Shown one piece after another: positions 24,269 to 45,048 of a stretch of 64,000 nt of DNA. Where the stretch lies: NCBI GenBank assembly GCA_008273105.1, contig GCA_008273105.1_4080.1; one strand, given 5' to 3'. This DNA comes from a phage. The notes below the pieces were generated by a model. The model worked only from the letters and a program-made list of their open reading frames with translations. It did not search any database and had not been told where the DNA came from. The position numbers were made by a program, and so were the translations under genes. Each line of letters opens with the position of its first letter. The stretch's first letter is position 1.

Positions 24269-24517
24269 AGGGACTCCCTTGAAAATAATATCAATCATAT
24301 TTTATACGATTCATATAAAAAGTCAATAACATTTTATTCGTAATACCCCTTTATCGAAGTCGCTAAGGTTACCCGCCCTTTAGCCCCCTACGCATTTTGC
24401 CATAGTCCAATCCCTTTTATTTCAAAAAAGTCAAGGGATTACCTATGCATTTTTTTAACGCATAATTTTAAAAACGCCTTGACTTTTTTCTGAATCAGTA
24501 CTAGATCCCTTTACGCA

Positions 24518-24727
24518 TTAATCCTTCGTTACGCTAACGATTATCTGTGTATCCCCGTAGTCCTGCCATACTTCCACGCCATCGGTCGCCCTGGTTAGTC
24601 GTGCTGTCATCTGCTTAATGGTCTTAGGCTTTAGTGGAACCTGTTGCAGTACTGTACGCATAGCATCATTGACGTTATCATGTACGCCTGCAATAGTACC
24701 TAGAACGCTGTATACTGTATAGAACAT
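24518..24727 (-). CDS. hypothetical early protein
   Basis: ORF 69 aa; AGGAGGG SD 7 nt upstream of ATG. Confidence 0.55.
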   Translation of the reverse strand: MFYTVYSVLGTIAGVHDNVNDAMRTVLQQVPLKPKTIKQMTARLTRATDGVEVWQDYGDTQIIVSVTKD

Positions 24728-24795
24728 ATGTATGCCCTCCTGATATAGTTAAGGCCGCTACAAGGCGGCCTATGATGTTTGGTGATGTGTAACGC

Positions 24796-25197
24796 TTACA
24801 GTCCTAAGATAGTGCGTGCTTCGTTACGTTCCGTACACAGCTGCATGATGTGAGCAAGTAAGTCCTTGCTAATGTATCCGGTGTTCATAGCTTCACGAAT
24901 AGATACATCATAAGCACCGAACCCCGTGCGAACGATACGCACATCATTCAGGTTAGTATTATAGATACCGCCGAGATCAACGGCTTCGAATACTACATCA
25001 ACAGAATATTCATTGTTGCCATCGTGGAAGTTTTCCAGTGCAATAGTATTGGATACCGCCCAACGTTTGCAGTTTCCAATGATGCGGCACTGTTCCGGTT
25101 GGATAGTACCATTACTTACAGCGTACTCCAGTGCATCTTTACCGAAAGTCCGAGCCAGTACTAAAACGTCAGCGAAGGAATTGATTGAGAAGGTCAT
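24796..25197 (-). CDS. hypothetical early protein
   Basis: Start set at MTFSINSF after AAGGAG; six-frame N-terminal extension MVLPPKLRSFI is the translated 5'-UTR hairpin. Confidence 0.55.
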   Translation of the reverse strand: MTFSINSFADVLVLARTFGKDALEYAVSNGTIQPEQCRIIGNCKRWAVSNTIALENFHDGNNEYSVDVVFEAVDLGGIYNTNLNDVRIVRTGFGAYDVSIREAMNTGYISKDLLAHIMQLCTERNEARTILGL

Positions 25198-25250
25198 GAT
25201 AAAACTCCTTAATTTAGGAGGGAGAACCATTTCCCCCTCTCTATGTAAAA

Positions 25251-25278
25251 CATTATACTTGATTCTAAGTACTATGCA
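25251..25278 (-). promoter_or_regulatory. sigma70-type early promoter (TTGCAT-N16-TATAAT)
   Basis: Minus strand: aaaaagtac TTGCAT ... TATAAT gttttacat, followed by GC hairpin and SD. Confidence 0.6.
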
Positions 25279-25286
25279 AGTACTTT

Positions 25287-25619
25287 TTACATTTTAATAC
25301 CTGGATTCAGGTAGCGGTGAGATCCATATTCTGGATCGGTTTCGGTCCAGTACTGTAAATCGATAGTACCTTTCGCGTTAATCTTGTCTACCAGCTTATT
25401 CATCTTAGTGTATACTACGTCAGCATCGATGCGTTTAAAGCCAGTAGCTTTAGTGAAGTAGTAGTGATTTGCTTCACTATCATTAAGGATATACCGAGCA
25501 CCGTTTGCAGTCTGTGCGATAATGATTGAGTATTCTACTTCCCGATCCAGACCGTCGATGAATACAGATGAAACATTGGTACGGATGAAAGCTTTAACGA
25601 TAGCGATTGAAGTACTCAT
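25287..25619 (-). CDS. hypothetical early protein
   Basis: ORF 110 aa; AGGAG SD; TTGACA-N17 promoter upstream. Confidence 0.55.
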   Translation of the reverse strand: MSTSIAIVKAFIRTNVSSVFIDGLDREVEYSIIIAQTANGARYILNDSEANHYYFTKATGFKRIDADVVYTKMNKLVDKINAKGTIDLQYWTETDPEYGSHRYLNPGIKM

Positions 25620-25825
25620 TTTGAATCTCCTAACTTTGTGGGCCGTCGCACCATTGCCGCCCTACGAGATACATTATTGCAGTACTGATATACTTTGTCA
25701 ATACTTTTTTTATTAATAGTTTTCACTTCACCAGCAGATAGTTACTCACCGTTATTAACTATATATTTTGGATACACTTATGCACCCTGTGGGCTAGTTT
25801 TTGTCTATGCGTATATAATAGCAAA

Positions 25826-25858
25826 GGAACTGACCGGAGTCAATCCCTTTTTTATTCT
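25826..25858 (-). terminator. intrinsic terminator hairpin (in repeated intergenic module)
   Basis: ggaactgaccggagtcaatccc hairpin with flanking A/T runs immediately downstream of gene 25861..26118; overlaps a TTGACT -35-like hexamer. Confidence 0.45.
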
Positions 25859-25860
25859 TT

Positions 25861-26118
25861 TTATGAAATATCTTCGATGTAGTCGGCCCATTTCATTTTT
25901 TCAGTACTGTCAATGGCTACCGGATTATTTGGATCAAACCATTCACCATTCCCGCAATACATACCCACGGCAACGGTTTTATAGCCATCCTGTGCAGTAC
26001 TCCACGACATAGCACGATAGATATGGCCTTTAACTGGTTGCAGTACTGGTAATGTTTTATGGTCTTCTACGTAGGCCATAGCTTGAGGATTTACCCGATA
26101 TTGTGTGAACTGTTCCAT
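25861..26118 (-). CDS. hypothetical early protein
   Basis: ORF 85 aa; AGGGGA SD. Confidence 0.55.
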   Translation of the reverse strand: MEQFTQYRVNPQAMAYVEDHKTLPVLQPVKGHIYRAMSWSTAQDGYKTVAVGMYCGNGEWFDPNNPVAIDSTEKMKWADYIEDIS

Positions 26119-26194
26119 TATGTTTCCCCTTGTAGTTAGTAAAGTTATTACATCAGTACTATCAAGCTATGTCAATAGTACTGAAATAAAACTT

Positions 26195-26419
26195 TTAGAT
26201 TAGATTATTGATGCCGTTGATGGTAGACTCGCTTTCTTCTTTCTCCCATTGGCGGTAGTACTTCCATGCTTCATGATATGTGGCGATTAGTTCATCTTTT
26301 TGATCCTGAGTACATGCCAGTACTGAATCACGATGAGCGGTGTTATAGATAGAATCGAATGATTTCTTCTCTTCTGCCAGGTTAGCTACTTCCCGCATTA
26401 GTTCATCAAAGTTAGCCAT
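26195..26419 (-). CDS. hypothetical early protein
   Basis: ORF 74 aa (MANFDEL...); AAGGAG SD; 5'-UTR hairpin gggggaggatatctccccc. Confidence 0.6.
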   Translation of the reverse strand: MANFDELMREVANLAEEKKSFDSIYNTAHRDSVLACTQDQKDELIATYHEAWKYYRQWEKEESESTINGINNLI

Positions 26420-26466
26420 TTTATTACTCCTTTTAGTGGGGGAGGATATCTCCCCCTATGCAAAAC

Positions 26467-26494
26467 ATTATACTTTGTTTTAGTTATTATGCAA
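26467..26494 (-). promoter_or_regulatory. sigma70-type early promoter (TTGCAT-N16-TATAAT)
   Basis: Minus strand TTGCAT aataactaaaacaaag TATAAT, then UTR hairpin 26438-26456. Confidence 0.6.
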
Positions 26495-26750
26495 GTACTT
26501 TTTTCATATAAAGATTATATTCTACACCGCCGTAACCTTCTACGATGATATGTTTTGCGTTATCACGTTTGCACATAGTGAAACCGTTGTTGATGTGTTC
26601 TGCATTTTCCAGGGCGACATCACCGATAGCGGCACATACGGCACTAATAACAGTATTCCGCAAAGTACTGGTATCATTAGCGGTCATAGTAGTTTGCAGT
26701 ACTACGTTGTCGTATACGTGTGCATTGATAGTGATTTCGATAGTGTTCAT
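26487..26750 (-). CDS. hypothetical early protein
   Basis: ORF 87 aa; AGGAG SD. Confidence 0.55.
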   Translation of the reverse strand: MNTIEITINAHVYDNVVLQTTMTANDTSTLRNTVISAVCAAIGDVALENAEHINNGFTMCKRDNAKHIIVEGYGGVEYNLYMKKVLA

Positions 26751-26836
26751 GGTGTATCTCCTGGACTGGCGGGAGAACTATTCCCCCGCTCTATGTAAAA
26801 CATTATACGTTAATCTAACTACAATGCAAGTACTTT

Positions 26837-27028
26837 TTAAATTTTATTTCCGATATAGTCCGGTCTATTCTTTTCGGTCATACGCTTTGCTAATGTTTGC
26901 ATATGGCTTATTGCGTTTAATGTGTCTTCCTCCAGGGATGAATCAACATAATCAGGATCATTCTTCACCTTGCAATGATTATGATAGCGTAGTACTGCCA
27001 GTACTTTTTTAACTTCTTCTACTGTCAT
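26837..27028 (-). CDS. hypothetical early protein
   Basis: ORF 63 aa; ATGA overlap with upstream gene (coupled). Confidence 0.5.
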   Translation of the reverse strand: MTVEEVKKVLAVLRYHNHCKVKNDPDYVDSSLEEDTLNAISHMQTLAKRMTEKNRPDYIGNKI

Positions 27029-27297
27029 AATAAGTACCCCACTTCGTTAGCTTTCAGGTTAGTATCAATCATCAGTGGATTTTTGTAGTTCACAAAACGA
27101 TTAGTTTTCTCGATAGCGAATCCCATATAATCCAGCTTACTAACAGTACATTCATTCTTAAAAACTTCTTTCGCTGCATCGATGGCTGATTGCATGGATA
27201 ACCGACCATCTAAATTAATGTTTCCAAATGATCCACCAGCAGAAGTAGGATTACCGTTCATATCTTTAATGATCATAGTAGCGGAGTAGCTGGACAT
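27025..27297 (-). CDS. hypothetical early protein
   Basis: ORF 90 aa; AGGAA SD; hairpin ggggagaactattctcccc in 5' UTR. Confidence 0.55.
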   Translation of the reverse strand: MSSYSATMIIKDMNGNPTSAGGSFGNINLDGRLSMQSAIDAAKEVFKNECTVSKLDYMGFAIEKTNRFVNYKNPLMIDTNLKANEVGYLL

Positions 27298-27381
27298 AAT
27301 TTTGTTTCCTTTTAGTATCGGGGAGAACTATTCTCCCCTTGATGTAAACTATTATACAGTACTGATATACTTTGTCAATAC

Positions 27382-27603
27382 TTAATTACGTTTAAAATGA
27401 TATGTGCCTTTATCATCCTGTACGCCCCATACTGATTTACCATCAACACCAGTGAAACCGGATTGTAATTCAATATGGAAACCATTATTATCAACTACAA
27501 AAACTTTTTTATTTTCATCCCGATAACATTGATATTCTGAATCAACATTAAAGGCCGCATCATTCAGAAGATTGGAAGCGTAAATGCAAGTCATTGTAGT
27601 CAT
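27382..27603 (-). CDS. hypothetical early protein
   Basis: Start set at MTTMTCIY after AAGGAA; upstream extension is translated UTR hairpin. Confidence 0.5.
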   Translation of the reverse strand: MTTMTCIYASNLLNDAAFNVDSEYQCYRDENKKVFVVDNNGFHIELQSGFTGVDGKSVWGVQDDKGTYHFKRN

Positions 27604-27657
27604 GATTTTATTCCTTATTCTTTGAGGGAGAACCATTTCCCCCTCTCGATATAAAAC

Positions 27658-27685
27658 ATTATACTTGATTCTAAGTACAATGCAA
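27658..27685 (-). promoter_or_regulatory. sigma70-type early promoter (TTGCAT-N16-TATAAT)
   Basis: Minus strand TTGCAT tgtacttagaatcaag TATAAT. Confidence 0.6.
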
Positions 27686-27779
27686 GTACTTTTTAAAAAA
27701 TAGTTTTCAGTACTGAATACTTATATAATAGATACATTTATGCACCCTGTGGGTCAGTGAGCTATCTCTCAATGAATAT

Positions 27780-27828
27780 ATAATAGCAAAGGGACTGACC
27801 GAAGTCAATCCCTTTTTTAATCTTTTTT
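27780..27828 (-). terminator. terminator hairpin overlapping a promoter-like TTGACT-N17-TATTAT element
   Basis: gggactgaccgaagtcaatccc hairpin with A/T flanks just downstream of kinase-like gene; same module at 25.8, 30.7 and 34.4 kb. Confidence 0.45.
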
Positions 27829-28411
27829 ATCGTGTTATAGTTACGGCTTTTACATCCCGCTTTTTATAGTACTGATTCCAGATATTGCGGGTTAAACCGT
27901 AATCAAGTACTTTAATAAGGCCGTTGCGATCCTGGCCGATATTCTGTTTTCTGATATCTCTTATCGTTAGTGTTGACAGTGTATCATCAACGTGTTGTAG
28001 TGCATCAGCAAAGCGGTGCTGGCGTTCAATTGCATTACGTTTAATATTGTACTTTAATTCGTTGCACGCGTTAACGTGCTTTACACTGCCTTTGCTTGCA
28101 GTACTCAACCGATCCATAACGATAAACATATTATCAGGATCGCTTAAATGCATATGCACTTTAGCAAAGTACTGTTTCAATTGAGGGCGGTCATAGTCTA
28201 AAAAATTCCATACCTTACATTCAGTTTCATTTTGTTCTACACCCGCATCACAATTGGCGACCTTAATCACTAACCGATCATTTAAAGCGAAAACTATACG
28301 GGAAGAACCTGCACCGATGATCTCCAAGCCAGCTAACCGACAAGCTGAAAGGATCTCTTTGTTGGTTTCCATTTCTGACAGTGTACGGATGAATTTAGTA
28401 TAATTACGCAT
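27827..28411 (-). CDS. protein kinase-like protein (truncated ePK-like fold)
   Basis: Gly-rich loop IGAGSSRIVF, VIK lysine, catalytic-loop-like IRDIRKQNIG, DYG (DFG-like) with typical spacing; start set at MRNYTKF after AAGGAGA. Confidence 0.6.
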   Translation of the reverse strand: MRNYTKFIRTLSEMETNKEILSACRLAGLEIIGAGSSRIVFALNDRLVIKVANCDAGVEQNETECKVWNFLDYDRPQLKQYFAKVHMHLSDPDNMFIVMDRLSTASKGSVKHVNACNELKYNIKRNAIERQHRFADALQHVDDTLSTLTIRDIRKQNIGQDRNGLIKVLDYGLTRNIWNQYYKKRDVKAVTITR

Positions 28412-28442
28412 TGCATGTTCTCCTTGAGTTAATGAAACTATA

Positions 28443-28685
28443 TTACAGTACTTTACTATCAATGGCAACTACTTTTTTAACATTAACGGCGTGGATCACT
28501 TCCTTCGTGTTTTTAGTACTGAATACTTTTGCCGTACCTTGTTCGACCGCAATACGATAGCGACCGTTAACGTCCACCATGTTGATAAAGTCCGGGGTAC
28601 TGAATGGAGTTACCCGGCATTTAAGAACGGTTAACAGTTCCACCAGCGTTGTAGTCTCTTTGATACGTTTTTCTAAAGTAATCAT
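28443..28685 (-). CDS. hypothetical early protein (paralog of 28743..28961)
   Basis: Start set at MITLEKRIK downstream of TTGACA-N17-TACTAT; six-frame extension MTVLKCFS is translated promoter. Confidence 0.5.
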   Translation of the reverse strand: MITLEKRIKETTTLVELLTVLKCRVTPFSTPDFINMVDVNGRYRIAVEQGTAKVFSTKNTKEVIHAVNVKKVVAIDSKVL

Positions 28686-28742
28686 TTTGTTTTCCCCGTG
28701 TTGGTATGCGTACATAGTACTAAAACATTTGAGTACTGTCAA

Positions 28743-28961
28743 TTAGATAATAGAATATTTCTTTAGTGATAATGCGTCTTCTGTCGGTTGATATTCTACA
28801 CCGTTCCCGTTATCTACCTTAGTGAGTAAACCTTTATCAATGAGTTTTTTGATGGTACGGTTTCCCTGTTGAAAACTGGTGAAGTGTGAATCATTACGAA
28901 AGGTATAACCGTGCTTCACTGCTTCATCAATAGTTTTCTTTTCGATTTTAGATAATTTCAT
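28743..28961 (-). CDS. hypothetical early protein, possible HTH DNA-binding
   Basis: Start set at MKLSKIEKK downstream of TTGACA-N17-TATTAT; HTH assignment is a guess from sequence appearance. Confidence 0.45.
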   Translation of the reverse strand: MKLSKIEKKTIDEAVKHGYTFRNDSHFTSFQQGNRTIKKLIDKGLLTKVDNGNGVEYQPTEDALSLKKYSII

Positions 28962-29017
28962 TTTGTTTCTCTCTCTGTGTTGGTATAGATACATAATACT
29001 AAAACATTTGAGTACTG

Positions 29018-29272
29018 TCAACGTGATATTAGTTTTATTTTTTTATTGTATTGTTGGTGTTCATATAGATTAATTTTTCCAGTACTCTCGATCACTATTC
29101 TATTGTTAGTGTCTACGTCGATTACACGTAGTTTCCCGTTGCTTAACTTCCTAGGCAATAGACTACCATTAATAAACTCATTAGCAAGCTGTACGGCCTT
29201 TGAGATGATTCTCTGTGGGGCTTTATAGTGTACCCGTAATACATTATCGTTTGATAGTTGAACCTTAATCAT
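29018..29272 (-). CDS. hypothetical early protein
   Basis: ORF 84 aa. Confidence 0.5.
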   Translation of the reverse strand: MIKVQLSNDNVLRVHYKAPQRIISKAVQLANEFINGSLLPRKLSNGKLRVIDVDTNNRIVIESTGKINLYEHQQYNKKIKLISR

Positions 29273-29285
29273 TTTGTTTATCCTA

Positions 29286-29311
29286 TAAAAAAGGCGGGAA
29301 CAGTTCCCGCC
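29286..29311 (-). terminator. intrinsic terminator
   Basis: Hairpin ggcgggaacagttcccgcc followed on minus strand by TTTTTTAT, just downstream of 29335..29730. Confidence 0.6.
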
Positions 29312-29334
29312 GTGTTGTTAGTACTGCAATGTTA

Positions 29335-29730
29335 TTAGATAACCTGGCGGCGTTTACTGTATACTGTTACACGGTTTCCTTTACGGTCATGACGGATCTC
29401 TTTCTGGTTACGAATCAGTTCACTTGGACGCTTAAGGTTTGCCAGGTGATCCGCGTGAGTCCATGCATTTGCGTTAACTGTAACTTCAATATCAGAACCT
29501 TCCAAGAAGTCATCTTGAGCGTTCAGTACTTCAGCCAGTTCTTGAGCTTTCTTCAGTTCTGCTTCAGTAAGTACAGGCTCAGGTGAATTCACAATATCAG
29601 AGATCTCTTTGAACTGTACCGCCCAGCGTTGTCCTTTCGGTGCATCTTTGCCCATGTCTTTAAATGTTTCACCTTCTTCACGAGCAACGATGCGAGCTTG
29701 TTCACGGGTAGCGAAGAATTTAGTAATCAT
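29335..29730 (-). CDS. hypothetical early protein (paralog of 41617..41880)
   Basis: Shares KFFATREQARI, TFKDMG, RWAV, DRKGNRVTVY with 41617 gene. Confidence 0.55.
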   Translation of the reverse strand: MITKFFATREQARIVAREEGETFKDMGKDAPKGQRWAVQFKEISDIVNSPEPVLTEAELKKAQELAEVLNAQDDFLEGSDIEVTVNANAWTHADHLANLKRPSELIRNQKEIRHDRKGNRVTVYSKRRQVI

Positions 29731-29829
29731 GGTGTACATCCTATTAGTTAAGTTAATTAGTACTACAAGTTAGAGTCTATTATAAAGTACTATCTGGGCA
29801 ATGTCAAATAGTACTTTAAATGGATTCTA

Positions 29830-30153
29830 TTACATGTCTTTCTTACGTTTTACATCGTAGTAACGAACTGTAATTTCTTTGTTGATCTCTTCCTCGATGC
29901 GGTGAATAACTTTTTCTTTCGGGTTGAAACCTATTACAGTTTCTTTAATGATCTCCAAGCCCGTGTATTCGCCTTGTGTACCGTAACCGTAAGTAAAGGT
30001 TTCATGTCCCAGGTCTTCCCAGCGGTCACCAATCAATGCAGACACGTAGCATGAGTGGTAAGTATTGCCGTGGCTATCAGTCCACCGATTAACTTTAATG
30101 TCAAAGGAAGTTACAATTTTCATTTCTACTTTCTGGGTAAGGATCATAGCCAT
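29830..30153 (-). CDS. hypothetical early protein (paralog of 35992..36315)
   Basis: Shares RWTDSxGNTYHSC, FTYGY and C-terminal VKRKKD. Confidence 0.55.
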   Translation of the reverse strand: MAMILTQKVEMKIVTSFDIKVNRWTDSHGNTYHSCYVSALIGDRWEDLGHETFTYGYGTQGEYTGLEIIKETVIGFNPKEKVIHRIEEEINKEITVRYYDVKRKKDM

Positions 30154-30242
30154 TTTAATTTCTCTCTTTGTTAGGTGGGGAACTATTCCCCACTTGATGT
30201 AAAATATTATACAGTACTAAAAACTATTGTCAAACTATTTTA

Positions 30243-30443
30243 TCAAATTGTTTCCCATTTCATGTTACCCGCTTTACGCTGTGAAACAGGAATAAACATG
30301 TTATTAATGTTACTAATATAACCGACCTGTAAGTCACGCTGTGAACCATACGCCCGACTTGCTGCATTTTTAGCACCGCGTTCTGATTTATAAACGCCGC
30401 TGGATACTGTAAAGCCTACTACACCGAAAGTAAAATGTTTCAT
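30243..30443 (-). CDS. hypothetical early protein
   Basis: ORF 66 aa; TTGACA-N16-TATAAT and AGAGGAA SD upstream; long duplicated leader further upstream. Confidence 0.55.
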   Translation of the reverse strand: MKHFTFGVVGFTVSSGVYKSERGAKNAASRAYGSQRDLQVGYISNINNMFIPVSQRKAGNMKWETI

Positions 30444-30493
30444 TTTGTATTCCTCTTTGTGGTTGATGTAAGTATTATACTCGTTTAATTTCT

Positions 30494-36315: not shown

Positions 36316-36406
36316 TTTAGTATTCCTTAAATTAATATGTGTCGTCTTGATAAAATCTATTATGCCAGTACTATCAAACTATGTCAATAGTACTGTGATA
36401 ATATTT

Positions 36407-36619
36407 TTACTTACTTTCTTTCGCTGCTTTATATGTTGCCACTGCCATAACCACATCAGCACGAACAAAGTTTTTAACCGTGTCACTGTAATAATTGATC
36501 GCATCATCTATATCTGCGAACGTCCGATACATACCGCACCAAGATACTTTATAACCTTCTTTCACTTCTGCCAGTTTAACGATAGTCTTGTTAACTTTGA
36601 TTTTAGTAATGATAGCCAT
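36407..36619 (-). CDS. hypothetical early protein
   Basis: ORF 70 aa; AGGAAA SD; UTR hairpin. Confidence 0.55.
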   Translation of the reverse strand: MAIITKIKVNKTIVKLAEVKEGYKVSWCGMYRTFADIDDAINYYSDTVKNFVRADVVMAVATYKAAKESK

Positions 36620-36705
36620 TTTAGTTTCCTTGTAGTGGGGAGAATCATTTCTCCCCTTGATGTAATGTATTATACTTTATTCGATTTACTTTGCAAGTAC
36701 TTTTT

Positions 36706-36933
36706 TTAATTTAATTCATCCAGGCAAAGGATACGCTCAACGCCCAAATCAGTTAAACTAATCGACGGCACTTGATAGGTTTCAATGTATGCTACACTTG
36801 CCCACTGACCGAACTCATTAACGGCCCAGGTATTCATTGCATTTTGCAATTCCGCACCTGCCTTGTTAGTAATGACTGCAACTACTTGTTCGTTGCCAGT
36901 AGTACCAGATACGCGAGTAATGATAATAGCCAT
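36706..36933 (-). CDS. hypothetical early protein
   Basis: Start set at MAIIITRV after AAGGAA; six-frame extension MFYIERG is the translated -10 region. Confidence 0.5.
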   Translation of the reverse strand: MAIIITRVSGTTGNEQVVAVITNKAGAELQNAMNTWAVNEFGQWASVAYIETYQVPSISLTDLGVERILCLDELN

Positions 36934-37170
36934 TGTTTTGATTCCTTTGATTTGGAAGGAGAACCGTTTCCCCCTCTCGATGTAAAACATTATACGCTAA
37001 TCTCTTAATCGTGCAAGTACTTTTTATTACTTTTTGCAAAATACTTTAAACGCTCTCAATCGCATTCTAACGACCTTAACGCCACCAGCTAGGGCGATGT
37101 ATCAGATAATCAGTTTAATGCGTTAGAATCGATTCTAGGCGGTGCTGGTGGACTGGAATACTACAGACAC

Positions 37171-37197
37171 AAAAAAGCCCACTGTTTAAGGTGGGCT
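37171..37197 (-). terminator. intrinsic terminator
   Basis: Hairpin agcccacc ttaaacag tgggct followed on minus strand by TTTTTT; identical copy at 37906-37932. Confidence 0.65.
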
Positions 37198-37218
37198 AGT
37201 GATTCAGTACTTTAATTG

Positions 37219-37701
37219 TTATGCTTCAACTTTGCGATGAGCTTCGATCCATTCCTCGCGAGTCATACCGCTTTCTTTGATAGCGTCCAGTACTACCGCA
37301 ATGCAGTTACCGCGTACAGGAATCATATGTTCTTCCCCGTTATCAAGTACTACAGTAACACGTTCTTGAATCCATTTTTTAGGTTTAGATTCTGGCTTAT
37401 CTTCACCATACTTAACCGCCAGGGCTTTATGTGCCATTTCTACAACTACTTCCAGATCCAATCCAGCCACCGCCGCCTGGATACTTTCGATTGTTGCTTG
37501 CAGTTCGGCTTCACGGGCTTTTTTCTGTTCTTCCAGTTCTGCTACCTTTTTGGCTTGCAGTTCTTTAGCTTCACTGTACGCAATGTTAAAATTGTTGCGT
37601 ACTGCTTTCATGGTATCGTTATCCAGGTCAGCCAACAATTCAGCAGCAATAACAGTATCGTTTGAAATCAGTGCTTTCAGGAATGATTTTACATTAGCCA
37701 T
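37219..37701 (-). CDS. H-NS-like nucleoid-associated protein (tentative)
   Basis: Helical charged N-terminal region (AKELQAKKVAELEEQKKAREAELQ); C-terminus VVLDNGEEH...PVRGNC...AIKESGMTREEWI loosely resembles, from memory, the H-NS C-terminal DNA-binding region; start at MANVKSF after GAGGA. Confidence 0.35.
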   Translation of the reverse strand: MANVKSFLKALISNDTVIAAELLADLDNDTMKAVRNNFNIAYSEAKELQAKKVAELEEQKKAREAELQATIESIQAAVAGLDLEVVVEMAHKALAVKYGEDKPESKPKKWIQERVTVVLDNGEEHMIPVRGNCIAVVLDAIKESGMTREEWIEAHRKVEA

Positions 37702-37905
37702 TTTATAAATCCTCAATTAAAGTTTAGTTTACGTTTATTAGTGTATCAAAGTTTTATCGACGTGTCCAGTTTTTCGTTCGACTTACTGGCGGTCTACTTA
37801 GTGCTCCCCGTCTTGATGTAATACATTCTACGCCTTTTTGTGGTAATGTCAACTACTATTTTAAAACTATTTTTAAAGTATGCAGTACTACGATAATACA
37901 AAAAC

Positions 37906-37932
37906 AAAAAAGCCCACTGTTTAAGGTGGGCT
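37906..37932 (-). terminator. intrinsic terminator (second copy)
   Basis: Same hairpin agcccacc...tgggct + T-run downstream of 37950..38249. Confidence 0.65.
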
Positions 37933-37949
37933 AGTGATTCAGTACTATA

Positions 37950-38249
37950 TTATAAACAGTTAATTACTCCGGTGTGCGTTACTTTCTCAGTATCCATAAC
38001 CGTGACCGATCCACGCTTAGTACTTACATCGTAATAAATTGTCGTGCTACCTTTTTCGTCTTCTTCATGGAACGGGCCGCTTTTAAATGCTTCTGGCTGG
38101 ATCTCTAAATCCTTTAAAACAATCTCGCCAGTACTTTCATCTGTCATCGCAACAGTGCACTGAATGAATTTTTCACTACTTACATCTAACGACGCATTAA
38201 CAGCGAAAGAGGAAACAGATAAAGCCAGGGCGATGATTGCAATTTTCAT
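37950..38249 (-). CDS. secreted/periplasmic protein with N-terminal signal peptide
   Basis: MKIAIIALALSVSSFAVNA-SLD: n-region, hydrophobic core and AxA-like cleavage site; AAGGA SD. Confidence 0.55.
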   Translation of the reverse strand: MKIAIIALALSVSSFAVNASLDVSSEKFIQCTVAMTDESTGEIVLKDLEIQPEAFKSGPFHEEDEKGSTTIYYDVSTKRGSVTVMDTEKVTHTGVINCL

Positions 38250-38333
38250 TTGATTATCCTTAGTTACCAGGGGGAACCGCTCCCCCGTGCGATGTAAAAT
38301 ATTGTACAGTACTAAAAACTAATTGCAAGTACT

Positions 38334-38570
38334 TTATGATTTTTTATAAAACATTTCGGCAGTAATATTTTTACCCGTTGGTTGTACTTTATCCAGAATT
38401 TTTTGATGCCCTGGCCGTCCAAATGAATATGATCCGTAAACCGTAAACCAGTAGTTACCCTCAGTGTTTACATGTACAGCACAATAGGGAACGCCCCGCG
38501 ATTCATCACCAATAAAGTGTGATACCGTTCCCGTTACATTAGCAGACGTTGATTTGATTTGTTCAAGCAT
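38334..38570 (-). CDS. hypothetical early protein
   Basis: ORF 78 aa; AAGGAA SD; UTR hairpin gggggaaccgctccccc. Confidence 0.55.
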   Translation of the reverse strand: MLEQIKSTSANVTGTVSHFIGDESRGVPYCAVHVNTEGNYWFTVYGSYSFGRPGHQKILDKVQPTGKNITAEMFYKKS

Positions 38571-38679
38571 TTTCTTATTCCTTAGTTACCAGGGGGAACC
38601 GCTCCCCCTATGCAAAACATTATACGCGTTTAAAAACTAATAGCAAGTATTTTAATAAAAAGTATTTGAAAAATAATTG

Positions 38680-38708
38680 TTGACAACTGCATCCAGTACT
38701 GGCATAAT
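38680..38708 (+). promoter_or_regulatory. plus-strand sigma70-type promoter (TTGACA-N17-CATAAT), antisense to early genes
   Basis: TTGACA actgcatccagtactgg CATAAT, followed about 28 nt later by CCCACAGGGTGCA at 38737-38749. Confidence 0.45.
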
Positions 38709-38788
38709 TACTACATAAAGACGATACAGTCACTAACCCACAGGGTGCATAGATCCGTCTATTAAATGATTCAGTACTTAACAATAAA

Positions 38789-38806
38789 GGGGATCAATCG
38801 ATCCCC
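38789..38806 (-). terminator. hairpin terminator downstream of 38813..39034
   Basis: ggggatcaatcgatcccc followed on minus strand by TTTATTGTT. Confidence 0.45.
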
Positions 38807-38812
38807 TATGTA

Positions 38813-39034
38813 TTACTTAGTAAGGTATAAACAGAAGTCACCTTTATTTGCTACGCCGCCAGTGTAACGCGATGAATAGTTAGAAACGTCCTGGACTTCT
38901 GCTATTACCAGTGTATCATCATTCAATTCGTCGCAGAAGCAAACGGCTGGATCTTTTACGCCGATCTTGTCGGCATGTTCCCGCATAGATTTAACCAGTG
39001 CTTCCAGTTGAGAAAGAGTAGTGATATTAGCCAT
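38813..39034 (-). CDS. hypothetical early protein
   Basis: Start set at MANITTL after GAGGA; upstream extension is translated hairpin. Confidence 0.5.
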   Translation of the reverse strand: MANITTLSQLEALVKSMREHADKIGVKDPAVCFCDELNDDTLVIAEVQDVSNYSSRYTGGVANKGDFCLYLTK

Positions 39035-39118
39035 TGTATTTTCCTCATTACCAGGGAGAACCATTTCTCCCCTCTATGTAAACTATTATACAGTACTGAA
39101 AACTAATTGCAAGTACTT

Positions 39119-39307
39119 TTAATTAAATTCCATAAAATCATTCTCAACGTGCACAACAATTTGATTGTTTTTAAAGTCCGCAGCGAACTCGATGCAATCA
39201 TAAACCGCTTTTTGTGTTACAATGCTATGAGTACCAATCGGATTAATAGGGGATTGAATTGTTTCAATCTCGTTCCCTTGCTCATTAACAATTAAAATAT
39301 TAAACAT
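39119..39307 (-). CDS. hypothetical early protein
   Basis: ORF 62 aa; AGGAG SD. Confidence 0.5.
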   Translation of the reverse strand: MFNILIVNEQGNEIETIQSPINPIGTHSIVTQKAVYDCIEFAADFKNNQIVVHVENDFMEFN

Positions 39308-39363
39308 CGCTGTTACTCCTGGGTAGTGTTAACTCGATATAAAGTATTATACGCCTTTATTGC

Positions 39364-39567
39364 TTAGTGTCCAGTACTTTTTAAAACATATTCATAAACA
39401 CTACGCACATCATTGATCATCGCCTGGCGGTTAGCAGGTAACGCACCAGGATCGCCACTATCCCAGGCATTGATAAAACTCCCCAAATCATGAAAGATTT
39501 TATTCTGTAAGCCGATTAACTGCAATTCTTTTTCTTCAAGCTCTTTGATACGGTCAATTAAAAGACT
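39364..39567 (-). CDS. hypothetical early protein
   Basis: Start set at MSLLIDRIK after GAGGA. Confidence 0.45.
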   Translation of the reverse strand, partial: SLLIDRIKELEEKELQLIGLQNKIFHDLGSFINAWDSGDPGALPANRQAMINDVRSVYEYVLKSTGH

Positions 39568-39587
39568 CATTAGATAATCCTCAGTAC

Positions 39588-39875
39588 TTAATTGTAAGAT
39601 CCGCAACGGTTACAATAGTGCCCGTCTTCCTCGTCATCGTCAACGAATTGACCGACGAAATTATCTACTTTCTCTTTGAGATTCTGATAATTGTTTTCAA
39701 CTTCCTTTAGACGTTCCTGGTAGTATTCCAGGGCTTGCACATACGCCGCCTCAGCCGTTTTCGCTCTTAAGGCTAAATTCATGCCACGCGTTTCATCGTA
39801 CATCCAAAAGCCATCGGTGCACTCACTGATTGACAATGATTTGGTTAACACTTTATAGTCAATTACTTTGCTCAT
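39588..39875 (-). CDS. hypothetical early protein with C-terminal Cys pair
   Basis: Start set at MSKVIDYKVL after GAGGA; C-terminus HYCNRCGSYN. Confidence 0.45.
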   Translation of the reverse strand: MSKVIDYKVLTKSLSISECTDGFWMYDETRGMNLALRAKTAEAAYVQALEYYQERLKEVENNYQNLKEKVDNFVGQFVDDDEEDGHYCNRCGSYN

Positions 39876-39931
39876 TAGATAATCCTCAGTAAAGGCGGGA
39901 ACCACACCCGCCATTGATTCAGTACTGAATG

Positions 39932-40171
39932 TTACATTCCAACCATTGCAGCACGGATCGCCGTAGTGCTATACTTGAATCCGTCCGGTGTTGTAGTAGT
40001 ACCGTTGGCTTTTAATCTGCGGTACATACATTGGGCCGCAATATCTTTAGTTTTACATTGTGCGATGCAACTTTGAGCAAGCCGATATAATGACTCACCG
40101 TTATTAATCCACAATGAAACATTCCAATGAGTTTTGTTTTTGTGTCCGTTGTAAGTTTTAGTACTAGCCAT
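39932..40171 (-). CDS. hypothetical early protein (paralog of 41972..42211)
   Basis: Shares GHKNKTHWNVSLWINN.ESLYRLAQ and TPDGFKYSTTAIRAAMVGM. Confidence 0.55.
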   Translation of the reverse strand: MASTKTYNGHKNKTHWNVSLWINNGESLYRLAQSCIAQCKTKDIAAQCMYRRLKANGTTTTPDGFKYSTTAIRAAMVGM

Positions 40172-40261
40172 TTTTAAATCCTCGTTTGAGCGGGGAACCA
40201 TTCCCCGCCTCGATATAAAGTATTATACGCTTTTAAACTTAGTTTGCAAGTACTTTTTAAA

Positions 40262-40873
40262 TTAATATGCGATTGATTCTACTACGTCATCAATAACATT
40301 GAATTGATATTCGTTACCCTCAATCAGTGCCGTAATGTTTTCAGTAGTGAATTGATCCTCATATGCATTCTCTAAATCACGGTACAACTTGCGGGATAAT
40401 TCACGAATAGTTTCAGTGAGTAGTTCCTCAAGCTCATTAACTAACGTTTCTTGTTTTGCGGTTAAATCAGTGTAAGCCGATTCAATGTACCCGCTTACAG
40501 TATTCTCATGTGAGTACAAAGAATGAGAACGCTTTACACTCATCGCCAAATCATCTTCATTCAGCAGGTGACGGATTGAGCGATACTTAGTTAATGCTCT
40601 TACCTTGCGTAAAAACTTCACTGCGTCAACGTGGTCAGTACTGATTGATGCACCGTCACCCTGGGACCAAAAACCACTGAATTGTATTTCAGCGTCATTA
40701 ATGCCATATTCCGGTAGTACTGTTTCTTTATAGTATTCAATTTCACTTTCAGAAAAATAATTGTCGTTTGAGTTTTTTTCACGTTCCCGAACCAGTTCGA
40801 TAGCCGCCGCTTGTTGTTCTGCGTTCAGTTCAGAAAAAGCCATAACGAAAGTAGTAGTAGTGATAGTTTTCAT
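40262..40873 (-). CDS. acidic hypothetical protein
   Basis: ORF 203 aa, many D/E residues, motif FSGFWSQGDGASI; GAGGG SD. Confidence 0.55.
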   Translation of the reverse strand: MKTITTTTFVMAFSELNAEQQAAAIELVREREKNSNDNYFSESEIEYYKETVLPEYGINDAEIQFSGFWSQGDGASISTDHVDAVKFLRKVRALTKYRSIRHLLNEDDLAMSVKRSHSLYSHENTVSGYIESAYTDLTAKQETLVNELEELLTETIRELSRKLYRDLENAYEDQFTTENITALIEGNEYQFNVIDDVVESIAY

Positions 40874-40925
40874 TTTGTAACCCTCATTCAGTAGTTTATG
40901 TAAGTATTATACGCTTTTAAAAACA

Positions 40926-41035
40926 TTTGTCAAACTATTTTATCAGGGGAGTTTTTCGTGTGCCTTACTCCTGGGCTACTTAACGGGGAGTTACTTATTT
41001 CGTTCCCCGTCCTGATGTAAAACATTATACGCCTT
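40926..41035 (-). repeat. about 107-bp structured leader repeat (copy 2)
   Basis: Near-identical to 30494-30600. Confidence 0.7.
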
Positions 41036-41095
41036 TAAACATAGTTTGCAAGTACTTTTTAAAAATAGTTTTCAGTACTGAATATTAAAAAAGTA

Positions 41096-41124
41096 TTGAC
41101 AGCATTATCAAGTACTGGCATAAT
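41096..41124 (+). promoter_or_regulatory. plus-strand sigma70-type promoter (TTGACA-N17-CATAAT)
   Basis: Followed by CCCACCGGGTGCA at 41146-41158; convergent with an inverted copy at 41203-41216. Confidence 0.45.
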
Positions 41125-41298
41125 ATACCCCATGACAACAGCTAACCCACCGGGTGCACAATTGTAACTATACTAAACTAATTTTTCTATAGATACACTC
41201 CCGCACCCTATGGGCTACGGCTTATCTGCCAATGAATACATTATGCCAGTACTGACAAAATAAGTCAATACCGGCAATTGTAAAGATTTGTAAACTGC

Positions 41299-41529
41299 TT
41301 ATACTGCAATCGCGTCCAGGCTATAATAATAATAAGTGCCGTATTGGTGTACTTTATTACCTTTTATTTCAGTACTGAATGAATCCGAACGGTTTGCATA
41401 TGATGTTAATTTAAAGTACTTTGATTTGCTGATACGTTGCCATACACCGCAGATCCGCTGTAAGTAAGTAGTTTTATTAGTGGTAGTATCTTTTACGGTT
41501 TTAACTTCAGTCATATACATATTAGTCAT
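41299..41529 (-). CDS. hypothetical early protein
   Basis: ORF 76 aa. Confidence 0.5.
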   Translation of the reverse strand: MTNMYMTEVKTVKDTTTNKTTYLQRICGVWQRISKSKYFKLTSYANRSDSFSTEIKGNKVHQYGTYYYYSLDAIAV

Positions 41530-41616
41530 TTTTATTACTCCAGGTTATAGGCGGGAAGTGTTCCCGCTCTCGATGTAAAACATTATACGCCATTAAACAT
41601 AGTTTGCAAGTACTTT

Positions 41617-41880
41617 TTATTCAAGTACTGCAATCTTTTTAGTACGGTACACGGTCACGCGGTTGCCCTTTCGGTCGAGCTTTATTTCTACCACTCGACG
41701 CGATACACTATCGGGACTTTTTAAGGCCGCTAACCAGTACTGTAATGATCTGGCGGTACTACGCTTTACAATGGCCCAACGTTTACCACGTTCCGATTGT
41801 ACGCCCATATCTTTAAACGTTGCCCCGGCGTGGCGTGCGGCGATCCGAGCTTGTTCACGCGTCGCAAAATACTTAATATT
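41617..41880 (-). CDS. hypothetical early protein (paralog of 29335..29730)
   Basis: Start set at MNIKYFATREQ; shared motifs with 29335 gene. Confidence 0.5.
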   Translation of the reverse strand, partial: NIKYFATREQARIAARHAGATFKDMGVQSERGKRWAIVKRSTARSLQYWLAALKSPDSVSRRVVEIKLDRKGNRVTVYRTKKIAVLE

Positions 41881-41971
41881 CATGCTGTTGCCCTTATCGT
41901 TGGTGTATGAATAAAACACTATTATAAAGTACTATCCCCGTGCAATAGTACTTTAAATAAATTCTATTCTA

Positions 41972-42211
41972 TTACATTCCAACCATTGCCGCACGGATCG
42001 CAGTAGTGCTATATTTGAATCCGTCCGGTGTTTTATCTTGTCCAGTCTGTTCTAAAAATAACATCATATGACGGGCCGCATCATTGCGATTAGTGCTATC
42101 GTTAATAAAGTCCTGGGCCAACCGGTATAATGATTCATCGTTATTAATCCAAAGGCTTACATTCCAATGAGTTTTGTTTTTGTGACCTAAGAACATTTTT
42201 GATTTAGCCAT
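41972..42211 (-). CDS. hypothetical early protein (paralog of 39932..40171)
   Basis: ORF 79 aa; GAGGA SD. Confidence 0.55.
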   Translation of the reverse strand: MAKSKMFLGHKNKTHWNVSLWINNDESLYRLAQDFINDSTNRNDAARHMMLFLEQTGQDKTPDGFKYSTTAIRAAMVGM

Positions 42212-42306
42212 TTTTTTTTAATCCTCTTATATAGTGGGGAACTATTCCCCACCTGATGTAAAACATTATACGCCATTAAACATAGTTTGCAAGTACTTTA
42301 TTAAAC

Positions 42307-42669
42307 TTATTTGTAAATTTTACCACTGTCAGCCCATACCAGGAAACGAGGCATATTATCCCATGCATCTTGTTTTAAGTTTAAGCCGTGCAATTCCTCA
42401 GTTGTTGCCATCCCTGGTACTGGCTTACTACACACCGCGAAATTTTCGCCCATATACTGATAAACCATCGTCAAATCATTTGAGATCATTATATGGATCA
42501 TTGAATCCAGCATCAAAGTAGCGGCGTATTGTTCACGCTTAAGCGGCAACATTGCAATAAGTTCCCGATAAGCTGCAATGTGAATTTTTACAGTTTCAGC
42601 CGGAAGACCTTTCATCTCATCGCGGAAGTTTACCAGGTTAAGCATGATTTTATTGATTTGAGTCGCCAT
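42307..42669 (-). CDS. hypothetical early protein
   Basis: Start set at MATQINKIM; six-frame extension MFYIESG is the translated -10 region. Confidence 0.5.
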   Translation of the reverse strand: MATQINKIMLNLVNFRDEMKGLPAETVKIHIAAYRELIAMLPLKREQYAATLMLDSMIHIMISNDLTMVYQYMGENFAVCSKPVPGMATTEELHGLNLKQDAWDNMPRFLVWADSGKIYK

Positions 42670-42724
42670 CGTTTTAATCTCTCTTAATGTGTAGCGGGAA
42701 GTGTTCCCGCTCTCGATGTAAAAC

Positions 42725-42752
42725 ATTATACGCTTTTATCAGTACGGTGCAA
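42725..42752 (-). promoter_or_regulatory. sigma70-type early promoter (TTGCAC-N16-TATAAT)
   Basis: Minus strand TTGCAC ... TATAAT gttttacatcgag, then hairpin gcgggaagtgttcccgc. Confidence 0.55.
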
Positions 42753-42784
42753 GTACTTTCTACAAATACTTTTAAAATAGTTTT

Positions 42785-45047: not shown

Positions 45048-45048
45048 A

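Follow-up and report, generated by a model that had tools for sequence, protein, structure and literature searches.

The 64,000-nucleotide stretch of phage DNA analyzed here (contig GCA_008273105.1_4080.1 of the NCBI GenBank assembly GCA_008273105.1; hereafter, the window) contains, on its minus strand, an interval densely occupied by small genes that an initial annotation, made without database searches, had characterized as an early host-takeover module studded with near-consensus sigma70-type promoters. We find that this interval belongs to the approximately 20-kb direct terminal repeat (DTR) of a jumbo myovirus of the genus Asteriusvirus (121Q/PBECO4-type), which is very probably organized as an immediate-early region driven by the host RNA polymerase (RNAP). 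The initial annotation is thus partly confirmed: the accumulation of promoters is real and far beyond chance, and the claims on coverage were inflated. It perceived the promoter region and missed the DTR, the dispersed repeats formed by the promoter cassettes, the promoters that are not followed by an open reading frame (ORF), and the role of the cassettes in recombination. The design is a known one, namely, a DTR early region of a known genus assembled from cassettes that resemble the PeSL cassettes of T4-type phages; the variant features are a hairpin located in the 5' untranslated region (UTR), AGTACT boxes, and a leader motif.

Limits of the direct terminal repeat

When two segments of the window (30-36 kb and 20-45 kb) were compared with GenBank phages, the long megablast matches were only to jumbo coliphages of the 121Q/PBECO4/G17/phAPEC6 group, that is, Asteriusvirus, at 90-98% nucleotide identity, and no record covered 80% or more of the 25-kb query (20-45 kb). 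Because all the long matches are to Asteriusvirus, the window is, by its sequence, evidently a piece of the approximately 350-kb genome of a Rak2-like Asteriusvirus myovirus.

The limits of the DTR were taken from the records of three independent relatives together with published mapping of genome ends; the window holds a single copy of the repeat inside unique flanks. The ends of the fEgEco12 genome have been mapped with PhageTerm and confirmed by restriction digests, giving a DTR of 20,993 bp (PMC13070987). Nucleotide 1 of fEgEco12 aligns to window position 44,384, from where the alignment descends along the minus strand; the vB_Ec-M-J record, with an annotated DTR of 21,525 bp, has its last base aligned at position 24,366; and, in the JP4 record, window position 44,384 is joined directly to 24,366, forming a junction of two DTR copies. 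Because the fEgEco12 start, the vB_Ec-M-J end and the JP4 junction align at these two positions, we assign the DTR to the 20,019 bp between them (Table 1). By this alignment, the interval flagged initially (24,300-42,760) is shown to be part of the DTR of an Asteriusvirus phage, with limits as mapped in the relatives; it corresponds to the coding part of the repeat, and its inner end lies within about 70 bp of the DTR boundary.

The size and content of the repeat agree with those expected for DTRs of Asteriusvirus and Rak2-like phages (about 20-22 kb with about 50 small ORFs; here, 20,019 bp with 50-51 ORFs), and the Sharanji DTR is 20,668 bp long. The gene layout also switches at the inner boundary: in fEgEco12, genes g01-g056 are separated by gaps of 55-100 nt, and from g057 onward genes overlap by 4 nt. 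The window displays the same switch from gapped to overlapping genes at about 24.3 kb.

Sigma70-type promoters in the repeat

Perfect (12/12) matches to TTGACA-N16-18-TATAAT number 10 on the minus strand of the DTR, vs 0.10 expected from dinucleotide-type shuffles; at least 11 of the 12 positions match in 18 sites and at least 10 in 40, vs 2.3 and 14.3 expected, respectively. The two flanks (24 kb and 20 kb) contain one and no perfect match. A regular-expression search with the two promoter forms quoted in the initial annotation and a third, hairpin-embedded form returned 33 matches in the 64-kb window, all of them inside the DTR (25.8-44.0 kb). The shuffles and this search bear out the dense array of stereotyped sigma70-like promoters reported for the minus strand of this interval, and both quoted forms exist. 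Class A, aaaaagtacTTGCAA-N16-TATAATgttttacat, is present in 12 copies, and class B, (c)agtactaTTGACA-N16/17-[T/C]ATAAT, in 16 copies, two of these on the plus strand. In class C, a 12-bp terminator-like hairpin, AAAGGGATTGAC-tccg-GTCAGTCCCTTT, encloses a TTGACT -35 element and is followed by a TATTAT -10 element.

The assertion that nearly every gene has a promoter of its own stands for about two thirds of the genes. Of about 50 genes, 31 (62%) are preceded by their own TTG-type promoter (at least 9 of 12 positions matching) 20-56 nt upstream of the ATG, and two more by degenerate copies; thus, 31 promoters are placed upstream of genes in the sense orientation, as early promoters of the host sigma70 type should be. 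The assertion fails for nine genes that are translationally coupled to the upstream gene (gap of at most 31 nt, often a 4-nt overlap) and for the remainder, which lie behind a terminator or lack a promoter. About 12 further promoters have no ORF behind them, which brings the total to approximately 45 promoter elements in 20 kb.

The promoters are conserved among the relatives. When the window was compared with five relatives over all aligned DTR positions, the first, second and third codon positions diverged by 3.3, 2.6 and 10.1%, respectively, compared with 1.6% for the -10 hexamer and 2.3% for the -35 hexamer; the 12 nt upstream of the -35 element diverged by 3.8% and the spacer by 5.4%. The difference between the hexamers and the third codon positions yields p = 6e-44 in Fisher's test, an optimistic value given that the relatives are non-independent. 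Judged by this divergence, the -35 and -10 hexamers are shown to be under strong purifying selection, stronger than that on the second codon positions.

Some of the strong promoters are on the plus strand amid minus-strand genes (38,680-38,812 and 41,096-41,230) and would yield transcripts of about 100 nt. The first of these units ends at a bidirectional hairpin (38,788-38,807); the second converges on the minus-strand unit at 41,268-41,200, to which it is complementary. The sequence TACTGTATAAT...ACAT was considered as a LexA/SOS box and rejected by inspection, given its CTGT-N10-ACAT spacing vs CTGT-N8-ACAG.

Promoter cassettes as dispersed repeats and recombination linkers

The promoters are embedded in longer repeated units. 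A repeat finder detected families D1-D5, each with 7-15 copies of 70-97 nt that are 60-89% identical and precede unrelated genes; each copy covers an A-tract, the -35 element, the spacer, the -10 element, the segment gttttacatc, a hairpin, and the Shine-Dalgarno (SD) sequence. Sequence comparison thus shows that the cassettes form a dispersed family of direct repeats of 90-100 nt.

Comparison of the window with the five relatives reveals at least 15 distinct insertions, deletions or replacements in 18 kb. The breakpoints are intergenic or at most 25 nt from a gene end in 26 of the 30 distinct cases, vs an expected fraction of 0.42 (binomial p = 5.5e-7), and five indels are flanked by duplicated cassettes of 43-99 nt. 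For example, at 27,285-27,383, three relatives carry an extra 405-nt gene between two cassette copies. These flanking duplications are more specific evidence of a linker role than the position of the breakpoints. Phages whose shared DNA is 93-98% identical differ in gene content, cassette by cassette.

Exchange apparently extends beyond the genus. The gene at 42,211-41,972 is 84-88% identical to genes of more than 100 rV5-like and phi92-like phages, and the Justusliebigvirus loci have the identical promoter-hairpin-SD architecture ahead of each small gene. In JLBYU50, the copy of this shared gene is preceded by the class-A promoter found in the window; in muut, the hairpin and the gene are identical, but the promoter is the class-B promoter of the window (that of 27,378). 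The crossover of this promoter swap is between the -10/'ACAT' segment and the hairpin. Comparatively, the cassettes are thus shown to serve as apparent linkers for homologous recombination, with genes inserted, deleted and replaced cassette by cassette and promoters swapped, and the DTR appears to be a hyperplastic pool of accessory genes that exchanges cassettes even with phi92-like phages.

Small genes and their products

Combined calling of ORFs and SD sequences identified 51 minus-strand ORFs of 29-203 amino acids (aa) between 24,518 and 42,669, one of which is doubtful (41025, 31 aa), in agreement with the original estimate of about 50 small genes. About half of the DTR genes have been conserved across the five relatives. 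Three cassettes have an in-frame ATG (gaaATGgtt; 27,636, 39,064 and 40,201) within the loop of their 5'-UTR hairpin, 10-11 codons upstream of the true start, which is the next ATG, behind the SD sequence; therefore, mechanical ORF calls over-extend these genes.

The view that most products have no recognizable function also holds: 45 of the 50 DTR proteins have no match in Pfam (E <= 1e-3), and the few further matches are marginal. Recognizable domains were found in about five products, namely, a mini protein-kinase-like protein, a GNAT acetyltransferase, a DksA/TraR zinc finger protein, a ParE-like protein, and DUF7249 (two proteins). The listed PHROG matches carry no functional description except for two acetyltransferase families and a weak match labeled as DNA ligase (ten-protein scan). 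The ParE-like gene (29,272-29,018) has a strong terminator directly upstream and no promoter of its own.

The 194-aa kinase-like protein contains all the elements of the catalytic core of protein kinases, that is, equivalents of the G-loop, the beta3 Lys, the alphaC Glu, (H)RDxxxxN and DFG. The corresponding motifs, GAGSSRIV, VIK(50), E64, RD(152)IRKQN(157) and D(170)YG, are fully or almost fully conserved among 11 homologs, down to 39% identity, and the protein stops just past DYG, the DFG equivalent, hence 'mini-kinase'. The match to Pfam Pkinase (E = 0.0013, 18.6 bits) is below the curated cut-off of 31.7, and a profile of the family searched against Protein Data Bank sequences matches MKK4/7 with E = 1e-4 to 5e-4 from the N-lobe through DFG. 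The AlphaFold2 model is of low confidence (mean pLDDT 49), and no homolog with a functional name was found in the database (the only one with a name is a "hypothetical protein"). By analogy, a role like that of T7 gp0.7 would be a reasonable guess.

Because only about five of the 50 products have a recognizable domain, host takeover is unsupported at the protein level; it is hypothesized here alongside exclusion and counter-defence as one of the candidate roles of these proteins. So mosaic a region can be read equally well as an accessory or counter-defence pool. We consider it a substantial possibility, somewhat short of an even chance, that the locus is a hyperplastic accessory island, an 'arsenal' of anti-defence, superinfection exclusion and toxin-like genes rather than a host-takeover module, in which strong promoters merely secure the expression of each acquired gene on arrival, as in morons or PeSL cassettes. 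The cassette-wise variation of gene content fits this alternative well, as do single genes that are common to more than 100 rV5-like and phi92-like phages at 84-90% nucleotide identity, the homologs in rV5, Felix O1, RB49, JS98 and G7C listed in the notes of the phAPEC6 record, the ParE-like domain, and an ORF of fEgEco12 annotated as 'spackle'; furthermore, essential takeover genes are expected to be conserved and not shuffled. However, the conservation of about half of the genes in all five relatives speaks against an arsenal, and no known anti-defence family was recognized in the Pfam and PHROG scans, neither of which was a search aimed at defence or anti-defence families. The arsenal is compatible with early expression and differs from the host-takeover interpretation only in the roles of the proteins.

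The AGTACT motif

The hexamer AGTACT occurs 259 times in the 64 kb vs about 22 expected, and CAGTACTG occurs 52 times vs less than one expected; the over-representation is 12-18-fold. Within the DTR, coding sequence contains 3.7 copies per kb, distributed over all three frames, and intergenic regions contain 11.9 per kb. The motif takes two fixed positions in the promoters: in 15 promoters, it lies over the first T of the -35 element, and in 10, it stops 1 nt short of the -10 element. Both positions and the enrichment are retained in other jumbo-phage contigs of IMG/VR, in which the spacer sequence between them is not conserved; in the phi92-like loci, the enrichment was not seen. Third codon positions within AGTACT diverge by 4.7% vs 10.1% elsewhere (p = 3e-5), and intergenic copies diverge by 1.7% vs 5.4%. 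By this measure, AGTACT is evidently under purifying selection. A targeted literature search retrieved no report of AGTACT over-representation in phages.

Two segments of the window, 9-16 kb and 20-24.4 kb, are free of AGTACT. AGTACA occurs about 39 times on the coding strand of the segment 9,000-16,000, and these copies include the tandem cAGTACAGTACAGTACA at about 12,868; in the segment 20,000-24,366, TGTACT occupies 10 of the 11 GTAC sites, the density of which is low overall. The two segments resemble a non-palindromic 'dialect' of the motif, in opposite orientations.

These observations raise the possibility of a two-tier region that is not simply 'early', in which only the class-B promoters, with the perfect TTGACA, would be constitutive immediate-early promoters used by the host RNAP, and the class-A promoters (AGTAC-TTGCAA-N16-TATAAT) together with the AGTACT boxes would be operated by a dimeric DNA-binding protein of the phage. 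Such a protein would either activate class A, which would then be delayed-early or middle (compare the MotA boxes of T4), or shut off early transcription. We regard this scheme as rather unlikely. It draws on the two promoter positions shared with other jumbo-phage contigs, on the apparent purifying selection on AGTACT in intergenic regions and at third codon positions, on the 10-bp palindrome TCAGTACTGA, which looks like a site for a dimer and is present in about 15 copies in the DTR leader, and on the class-A -35 element, which matches the consensus at only four of the six positions. However, AGTACT is also 10-fold enriched in coding sequence, in three frames, and across the 64-kb window, and it is therefore not a promoter-specific operator; class A keeps a perfect -10 element, a 16-bp spacer and the upstream A-tract, which, on general knowledge, suffices for sigma70; and no candidate regulator was identified. 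An immediate-early region served by host RNAP throughout is our preferred interpretation.

Hairpins in the 5' untranslated regions

In 21 cassettes, a perfect, GC-rich hairpin of 7-9 bp starts 8-14 nt (mode 12) and ends 27-35 nt after the -10 element and is followed by an SD sequence (AAGGA, GAGGA or AGGAG), so the described succession of a GC hairpin and an AGGAG-type SD is present in these cassettes. Assuming the usual distance of 6-8 nt between the -10 element and the transcription start, all 21 hairpins are inside the transcript of their own cassette. None of the 21 is followed by a U-tract, and intrinsic termination was rejected for these hairpins on this count.

The unbiased test of the hairpins is the comparison of orthologs with the relatives, in which the stems diverge by 3.1% and the loops by 9.6% (Fisher's p = 8e-7, optimistic for the reason given above). 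Among 27 changes in stem pairs in the relatives, seven are double compensatory substitutions, 12 produce G.U pairs in the sense strand, two produce A.C (G.U on the antisense strand), and six are other mismatches. Pairing is thus kept on the sense strand in 19 of the 27 cases, which points to a structure of the sense RNA or of the non-template strand of the DNA. For the comparison among cassettes, pairs were counted on arm-only sequences with a dummy loop because alignment of whole cassettes with MAFFT mis-registers the hairpin arms. The cassettes together with two phi92-like phages contain 20 different complementary stems, a count that is partly circular because the copies were chosen as hairpins.

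In E. coli, stem-loops at the 5' terminus of an mRNA block the 5'-end-dependent entry of RNase E, and internal hairpins stop 3' exonucleases. Because the hairpins lie at about +5 of the mRNA and lack a U-tract, and given what is known of E. coli mRNA decay, they are most likely message stabilizers or insulators; a role as terminators is unlikely. Canonical terminators appear to be scarce in the region: terminator-like sites on the minus strand number only about 10, and those on both strands 18 vs 12.1 +/- 3.0 in shuffles, so the statement that many genes are followed by a hairpin and a T-run was exaggerated. The proposal that the hairpins are attenuators or terminators of read-through from the upstream gene, as suggested for the PeSL stem-loops, takes its appeal from the strong, terminator-like reduction of lacZ expression by those stem-loops (GGGG...CCCC; PMC2839356), from the same G-run/C-run composition of the stems here, and from the need for something to limit the build-up of read-through where canonical terminators are few, but it is improbable given the missing U-tracts, the presence of separate canonical terminators in the region, and the location of the hairpin about 12 nt after the -10 element, where it would terminate the transcript of its own cassette, an outcome that the PeSL placement avoids.

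Leader motif and 90-nucleotide element

A second candidate regulatory element, the leader motif CCCAYAGGGTGC(A), is present in 10 copies, in the DTR only and on both strands, vs 0.4 expected. Every copy lies 27-28 nt downstream of the -10 element of a strong promoter without an ORF. The unit of promoter and leader motif, with equal spacing, was found in several Rak2-like genera (79 copies, 54 after de-duplication). RNAalifold applied to 46 units detected only an invariant mini-hairpin of 4 bp, closed by an A-U pair in 23 copies and by a G-U pair in 21. A further covarying hairpin of 3-5 bp, with a purine-rich loop, accompanies the motif in about 30 copies and often precedes it. A long-range helix joining the 5' end to sequence downstream of the motif was considered and rejected (mean run of 5.54 vs 5.25 in shuffles). 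The motif could be an antitermination or regulator site akin to nut, put or ops, or else part of a small RNA.

The DTR also contains two copies of an ORF-less element of about 90 nt. This element is 86-98% identical in 45 phage records, comprising all Asteriusvirus, with two copies per DTR, and about eight phi92-like phages, and most of the records listed carry no annotation for it. Its RNA is predicted to fold with -20.4 kcal/mol (z = -2.2). A scan of 24-45 kb against Rfam (E <= 1) returned three matches, all at the level of chance (mir-1000 twice and Trp leader); therefore, neither the hairpins nor the leader motif nor the 90-nt element is accounted for by a known RNA family in that scan.

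We would venture, as a tentative proposal that we think has a better chance of being wrong than right, that Rak2-like jumbo phages share an undescribed regulatory code for the early region in their terminal repeat, superimposed on the sigma70 promoters and consisting of AGTACT, the leader-motif unit, and the gene-moving cassettes with 5'-UTR hairpins. The distribution of AGTACT suggests a site for a clade-specific protein that binds or modifies DNA, and the unit promoter-N27-CCCAYAGGGTGC may head each early block.

Leader and flanks of the repeat

The outermost part of the DTR, about 1.6 kb, is a non-coding leader, and fEgEco12 likewise has no annotated coding sequence before nt 1689. It contains about 15 copies of (T)TCAGTACTGA(A), an ORF-less perfect promoter (44019-43992), tandem repeats, and convergent leader-motif units. 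The tandem repeats have a period of 24 nt (TAGCCGTTTAGCCGTCCAGAA; 43526-43581, within 43,497-43,581), and a small hairpin, GGCAGA-ggaa-gTCTGCC, is located exactly at the mapped genome end (44,384-44,300). The tandem repeats and the end hairpin may be features of packaging or end recognition.

On either side of the DTR (44,658-49,466 and about 16,000-24,268, minus strand), about 24 or more tightly packed genes encoding 60-75 aa form an array, and the start and stop codons of many of them overlap; these are apparently arrays of paralogs transcribed in the same direction as the DTR. Genes on the plus strand, which encode RCC1-like repeats, start only at 49,551. A strand switch at 43-44 kb, read from the GC skew, was rejected because the small minus-strand genes reach 49.5 kb and the plus-strand genes begin at 49,551. 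ARAGORN detected no tRNA and no tmRNA in the window.

Table 1. Features of the terminal repeat and its inner border, in window coordinates (promoters are given from the start of the -35 element to the end of the -10 element)
Feature	Position	Strand	Basis or remark
Long direct terminal repeat, 20,019 bp	24,366-44,384	minus, read 44,384 down to 24,366	fEgEco12, vB_Ec-M-J, JP4
Non-coding DTR leader, ~1.6 kb	42760..44384	minus	sequence read; fEgEco12 annotation
~50 small ORFs as single-gene or 2-4-gene expression cassettes	24518..42669	minus	ORF and SD calls; matches to fEgEco12 g01-g056 annotation
Gene-proximal sigma70-type promoters, 1-11 of 31	42752-42725, 42292-42265, 41609-41582, 40933-40906, 40249-40222, 39373-39346, 39112-39085, 38646-38619, 38328-38301, 37016-36989, 36696-36669	minus	
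Gene-proximal sigma70-type promoters, 12-21 of 31	36387-36359, 35112-35085, 34883-34856, 34297-34270, 33863-33836, 33552-33524, 33282-33255, 32170-32143, 31482-31455, 30501-30474	minus	
Gene-proximal sigma70-type promoters, 22-31 of 31	30233-30206, 29807-29779, 29021-28993, 28742-28714, 27685-27658, 27378-27351, 26829-26802, 26494-26467, 25701-25673, 25279-25252	minus	
Class C elements (four)	34426-34399, 30755-30728, 27815-27788, 25850-25823	minus	repeat D7
GC hairpins, 1-11 of 21	42711-42693, 42253-42233, 41567-41551, 40209-40189, 39072-39053, 38610-38590, 38286-38270, 36976-36955, 36656-36637, 35072-35053, 34843-34826	minus	
GC hairpins, 12-21 of 21	34256-34238, 33823-33805, 31714-31696, 31442-31423, 30193-30175, 27645-27624, 27338-27320, 26789-26769, 26456-26438, 25239-25218	minus	
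Canonical intrinsic terminators (hairpin and T-run)	38807-38788, 37932-37911, 37197-37176, 29311-29293	minus	
Leader motif copies	25781, 27741, 30686, 32690, 34352, 41202	minus	
Leader motif copies	38737, 41146, 43085, 43301	plus	
ORF-less ~90-nt element	30502..30591; second copy 41023-40934	minus	repeat D6; between class-A and class-B promoters
GNAT acetyltransferase	32113-31757	minus	Pfam; annotations of relatives
DksA/TraR C4 zinc-finger protein	32434-32177	minus	Pfam; annotations of relatives
84-aa protein with ParE-like toxin domain	29018..29272	minus	PF24732, E = 3.6e-10, above curated cut-off
Mini protein-kinase-like gene, 194 aa	27827..28411	minus	catalytic motifs; profile search
Promoter TTGACT-16-TAAAAT	24299..24326	minus	40 bp outside the inner DTR boundary; heads the overlapping small-gene array after the DTR

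Relation to described systems

The closest described system is the PeSL cassettes of the T4-type phages RB49/phi1, PST/T4 and nt-1/KVP40 (Arbiol et al. 2010, PMC2839356; Comeau et al. 2014, PMC4122927). PeSLs, each of which consists of a near-consensus sigma70 promoter with AT-rich DNA upstream and a G-run/C-run stem-loop, cluster in hyperplastic regions, and they mediate the shuffling of modules and the formation of mini-circles (PMC2839356, PMC4122927). The cassettes described here similarly combine a promoter with A/T-rich upstream DNA, a G-run/C-run stem-loop, an SD sequence and an ATG in an intergenic unit of about 100 nt, and are present in many copies among the small ORFans of a hyperplastic region, where single-gene indels and replacements between relatives break at the cassettes and duplicated cassettes flank indels. 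The four class-C elements correspond to a described PeSL subclass in which the stem-loop lies over the -35 element (PMC2839356).

The main difference is in the placement of the stem-loop. In PeSLs, it is upstream of, within, or just before the start of its own promoter, a placement that, among the elements of the DTR, is seen in the four class-C copies only, whereas the 21 hairpins are in the 5' UTR of their own gene. Because these hairpins are in their own 5' UTR and lack a U-tract, the terminator logic of the PeSLs does not apply to the 21 main cassettes. Furthermore, the phage here is a Rak2-like jumbo phage, the cassettes are in a terminal repeat, and the promoters contain AGTACT boxes. 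Terminator-like activity and mini-circles have been described for the PeSLs.

Two jumbo phages offer precedents at the level of architecture. In PA5oct, a Pseudomonas phage (Lood et al. 2020, PMC7318152), most genes of the long DTR are highly transcribed at 5 min by RNA-seq, and 32 promoters with TTGAC and TATAATA boxes are located at transcription start sites. This phage belongs to a related jumbo-phage clade and also has a long DTR full of small uncharacterized genes and TTGAC/TATAATA promoters; it belongs to another genus and infects another host, and the likeness is one of architecture. No analysis of cassettes, hairpins or recombination was found in the searched passages of the article. 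For vB_PcaM_CBB (Buttimer et al. 2017, PMC5259590), the paper reports RpoD-like promoters with an UP-like element before short ORFs, which were read as an early host-takeover region, and a terminal repeat of 22.5 kb with 51 ORFs. The paper counts only 18 such promoters genome-wide, three of them in the repeat, a much lower density than the approximately 45 in 20 kb here, and no hairpin or AGTACT feature was found in the searched passages of it. Neither the fEgEco12 paper nor the Sharanji paper makes mention of promoters.

The pre-early (first-step-transfer) genes of phage T5 and the host-takeover module of SPO1 are small, mostly uncharacterized genes located in a terminal repeat or redundancy, which have very strong promoters for the host RNAP, are expressed first, and act on the host. 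Compared with these, the DTR is 4-5 times richer in genes and strongly mosaic, and Pfam and PHROGs recognized no homologs; specifically, none of the T5 A1, A2 and dmp or SPO1 gp44, gp50, gp51 and gp56 types appeared in Pfam for the 50 proteins or in the PHROG descriptions (the best 25 of 42 families), in scans by family only. By analogy, the T5 pre-early genes (for the temporal classes of T5 genes, see PMC7472727) and the SPO1 module may be considered functional counterparts of the DTR genes that share no detectable homology with them.

A model of the early region

The features described above can be combined into a model of how the DTR would work. With a copy of the DTR at each end of the virion DNA, whichever end enters first would deliver the DTR genes. 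The E. coli sigma70 holoenzyme would then fire all the promoters simultaneously, and no phage factor would be needed for the resulting burst of about 50 small proteins. Located at about +5 of each mRNA, the hairpin would shield the 5' end from entry of RNase E and RppH and bar 3' exonucleases in read-through RNAs. The region would be split into blocks by about 10 terminators and the six minus-strand 'block-head' units in which a promoter is coupled to the CCCAYAGGGTGC leader motif.

The early assignment made in the initial annotation appears to be well supported by inference, from the near-consensus promoters and their placement, the conservation of the hexamers, the coincidence with the DTR, and the precedents of PA5oct and CBB. 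Several considerations weigh against this interpretation. For Asteriusvirus, transcription start sites, timing and promoter activity are all features that we infer, and no promoter or transcription analysis of any member of the genus, 121Q and PBECO4 included, was found in the literature. Either genome end may be the first to enter, and entry may be stepwise. The combination of a non-consensus -35 element in class A (TTGCAA) with conserved AGTACT boxes could signify that these promoters depend on a phage factor or are controlled by one. The five relatives are non-independent, and the signature of purifying selection could also arise from gene conversion between cassettes; breakpoints at gene ends are likewise expected from selection against broken genes, whatever the mechanism of recombination. 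The stabilizing role of the hairpins is argued only from their position and general knowledge of E. coli mRNA decay, and products with a recognizable domain number about five of 50.

As interpreted here, the DTR would be a very clean example of a classical design, in which the first-expressed genes of a virulent phage are located in the terminal repeat behind strong promoters of the host type. The analysis is also of practical value. It provides exact DTR limits for this genome, a catalog of approximately 45 predicted strong, compact promoters of the E. coli type along with 21 promoter-hairpin-SD expression cassettes, and about 50 small, putatively early ORFs, including the 194-aa mini-kinase-like one, that are natural candidates for screens for host-acting or anti-defence proteins. 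More generally, the cassette-wise turnover of genes seen here and the promoter swap, which is shared with phi92-like phages, extend the PeSL idea beyond the T4-type phages and show how phages with 350-kb genomes apparently renew their accessory genes. If confirmed, the AGTACT motif with its 'dialect' segments and the leader motif present in several genera would matter more, pointing to clade-specific regulators.

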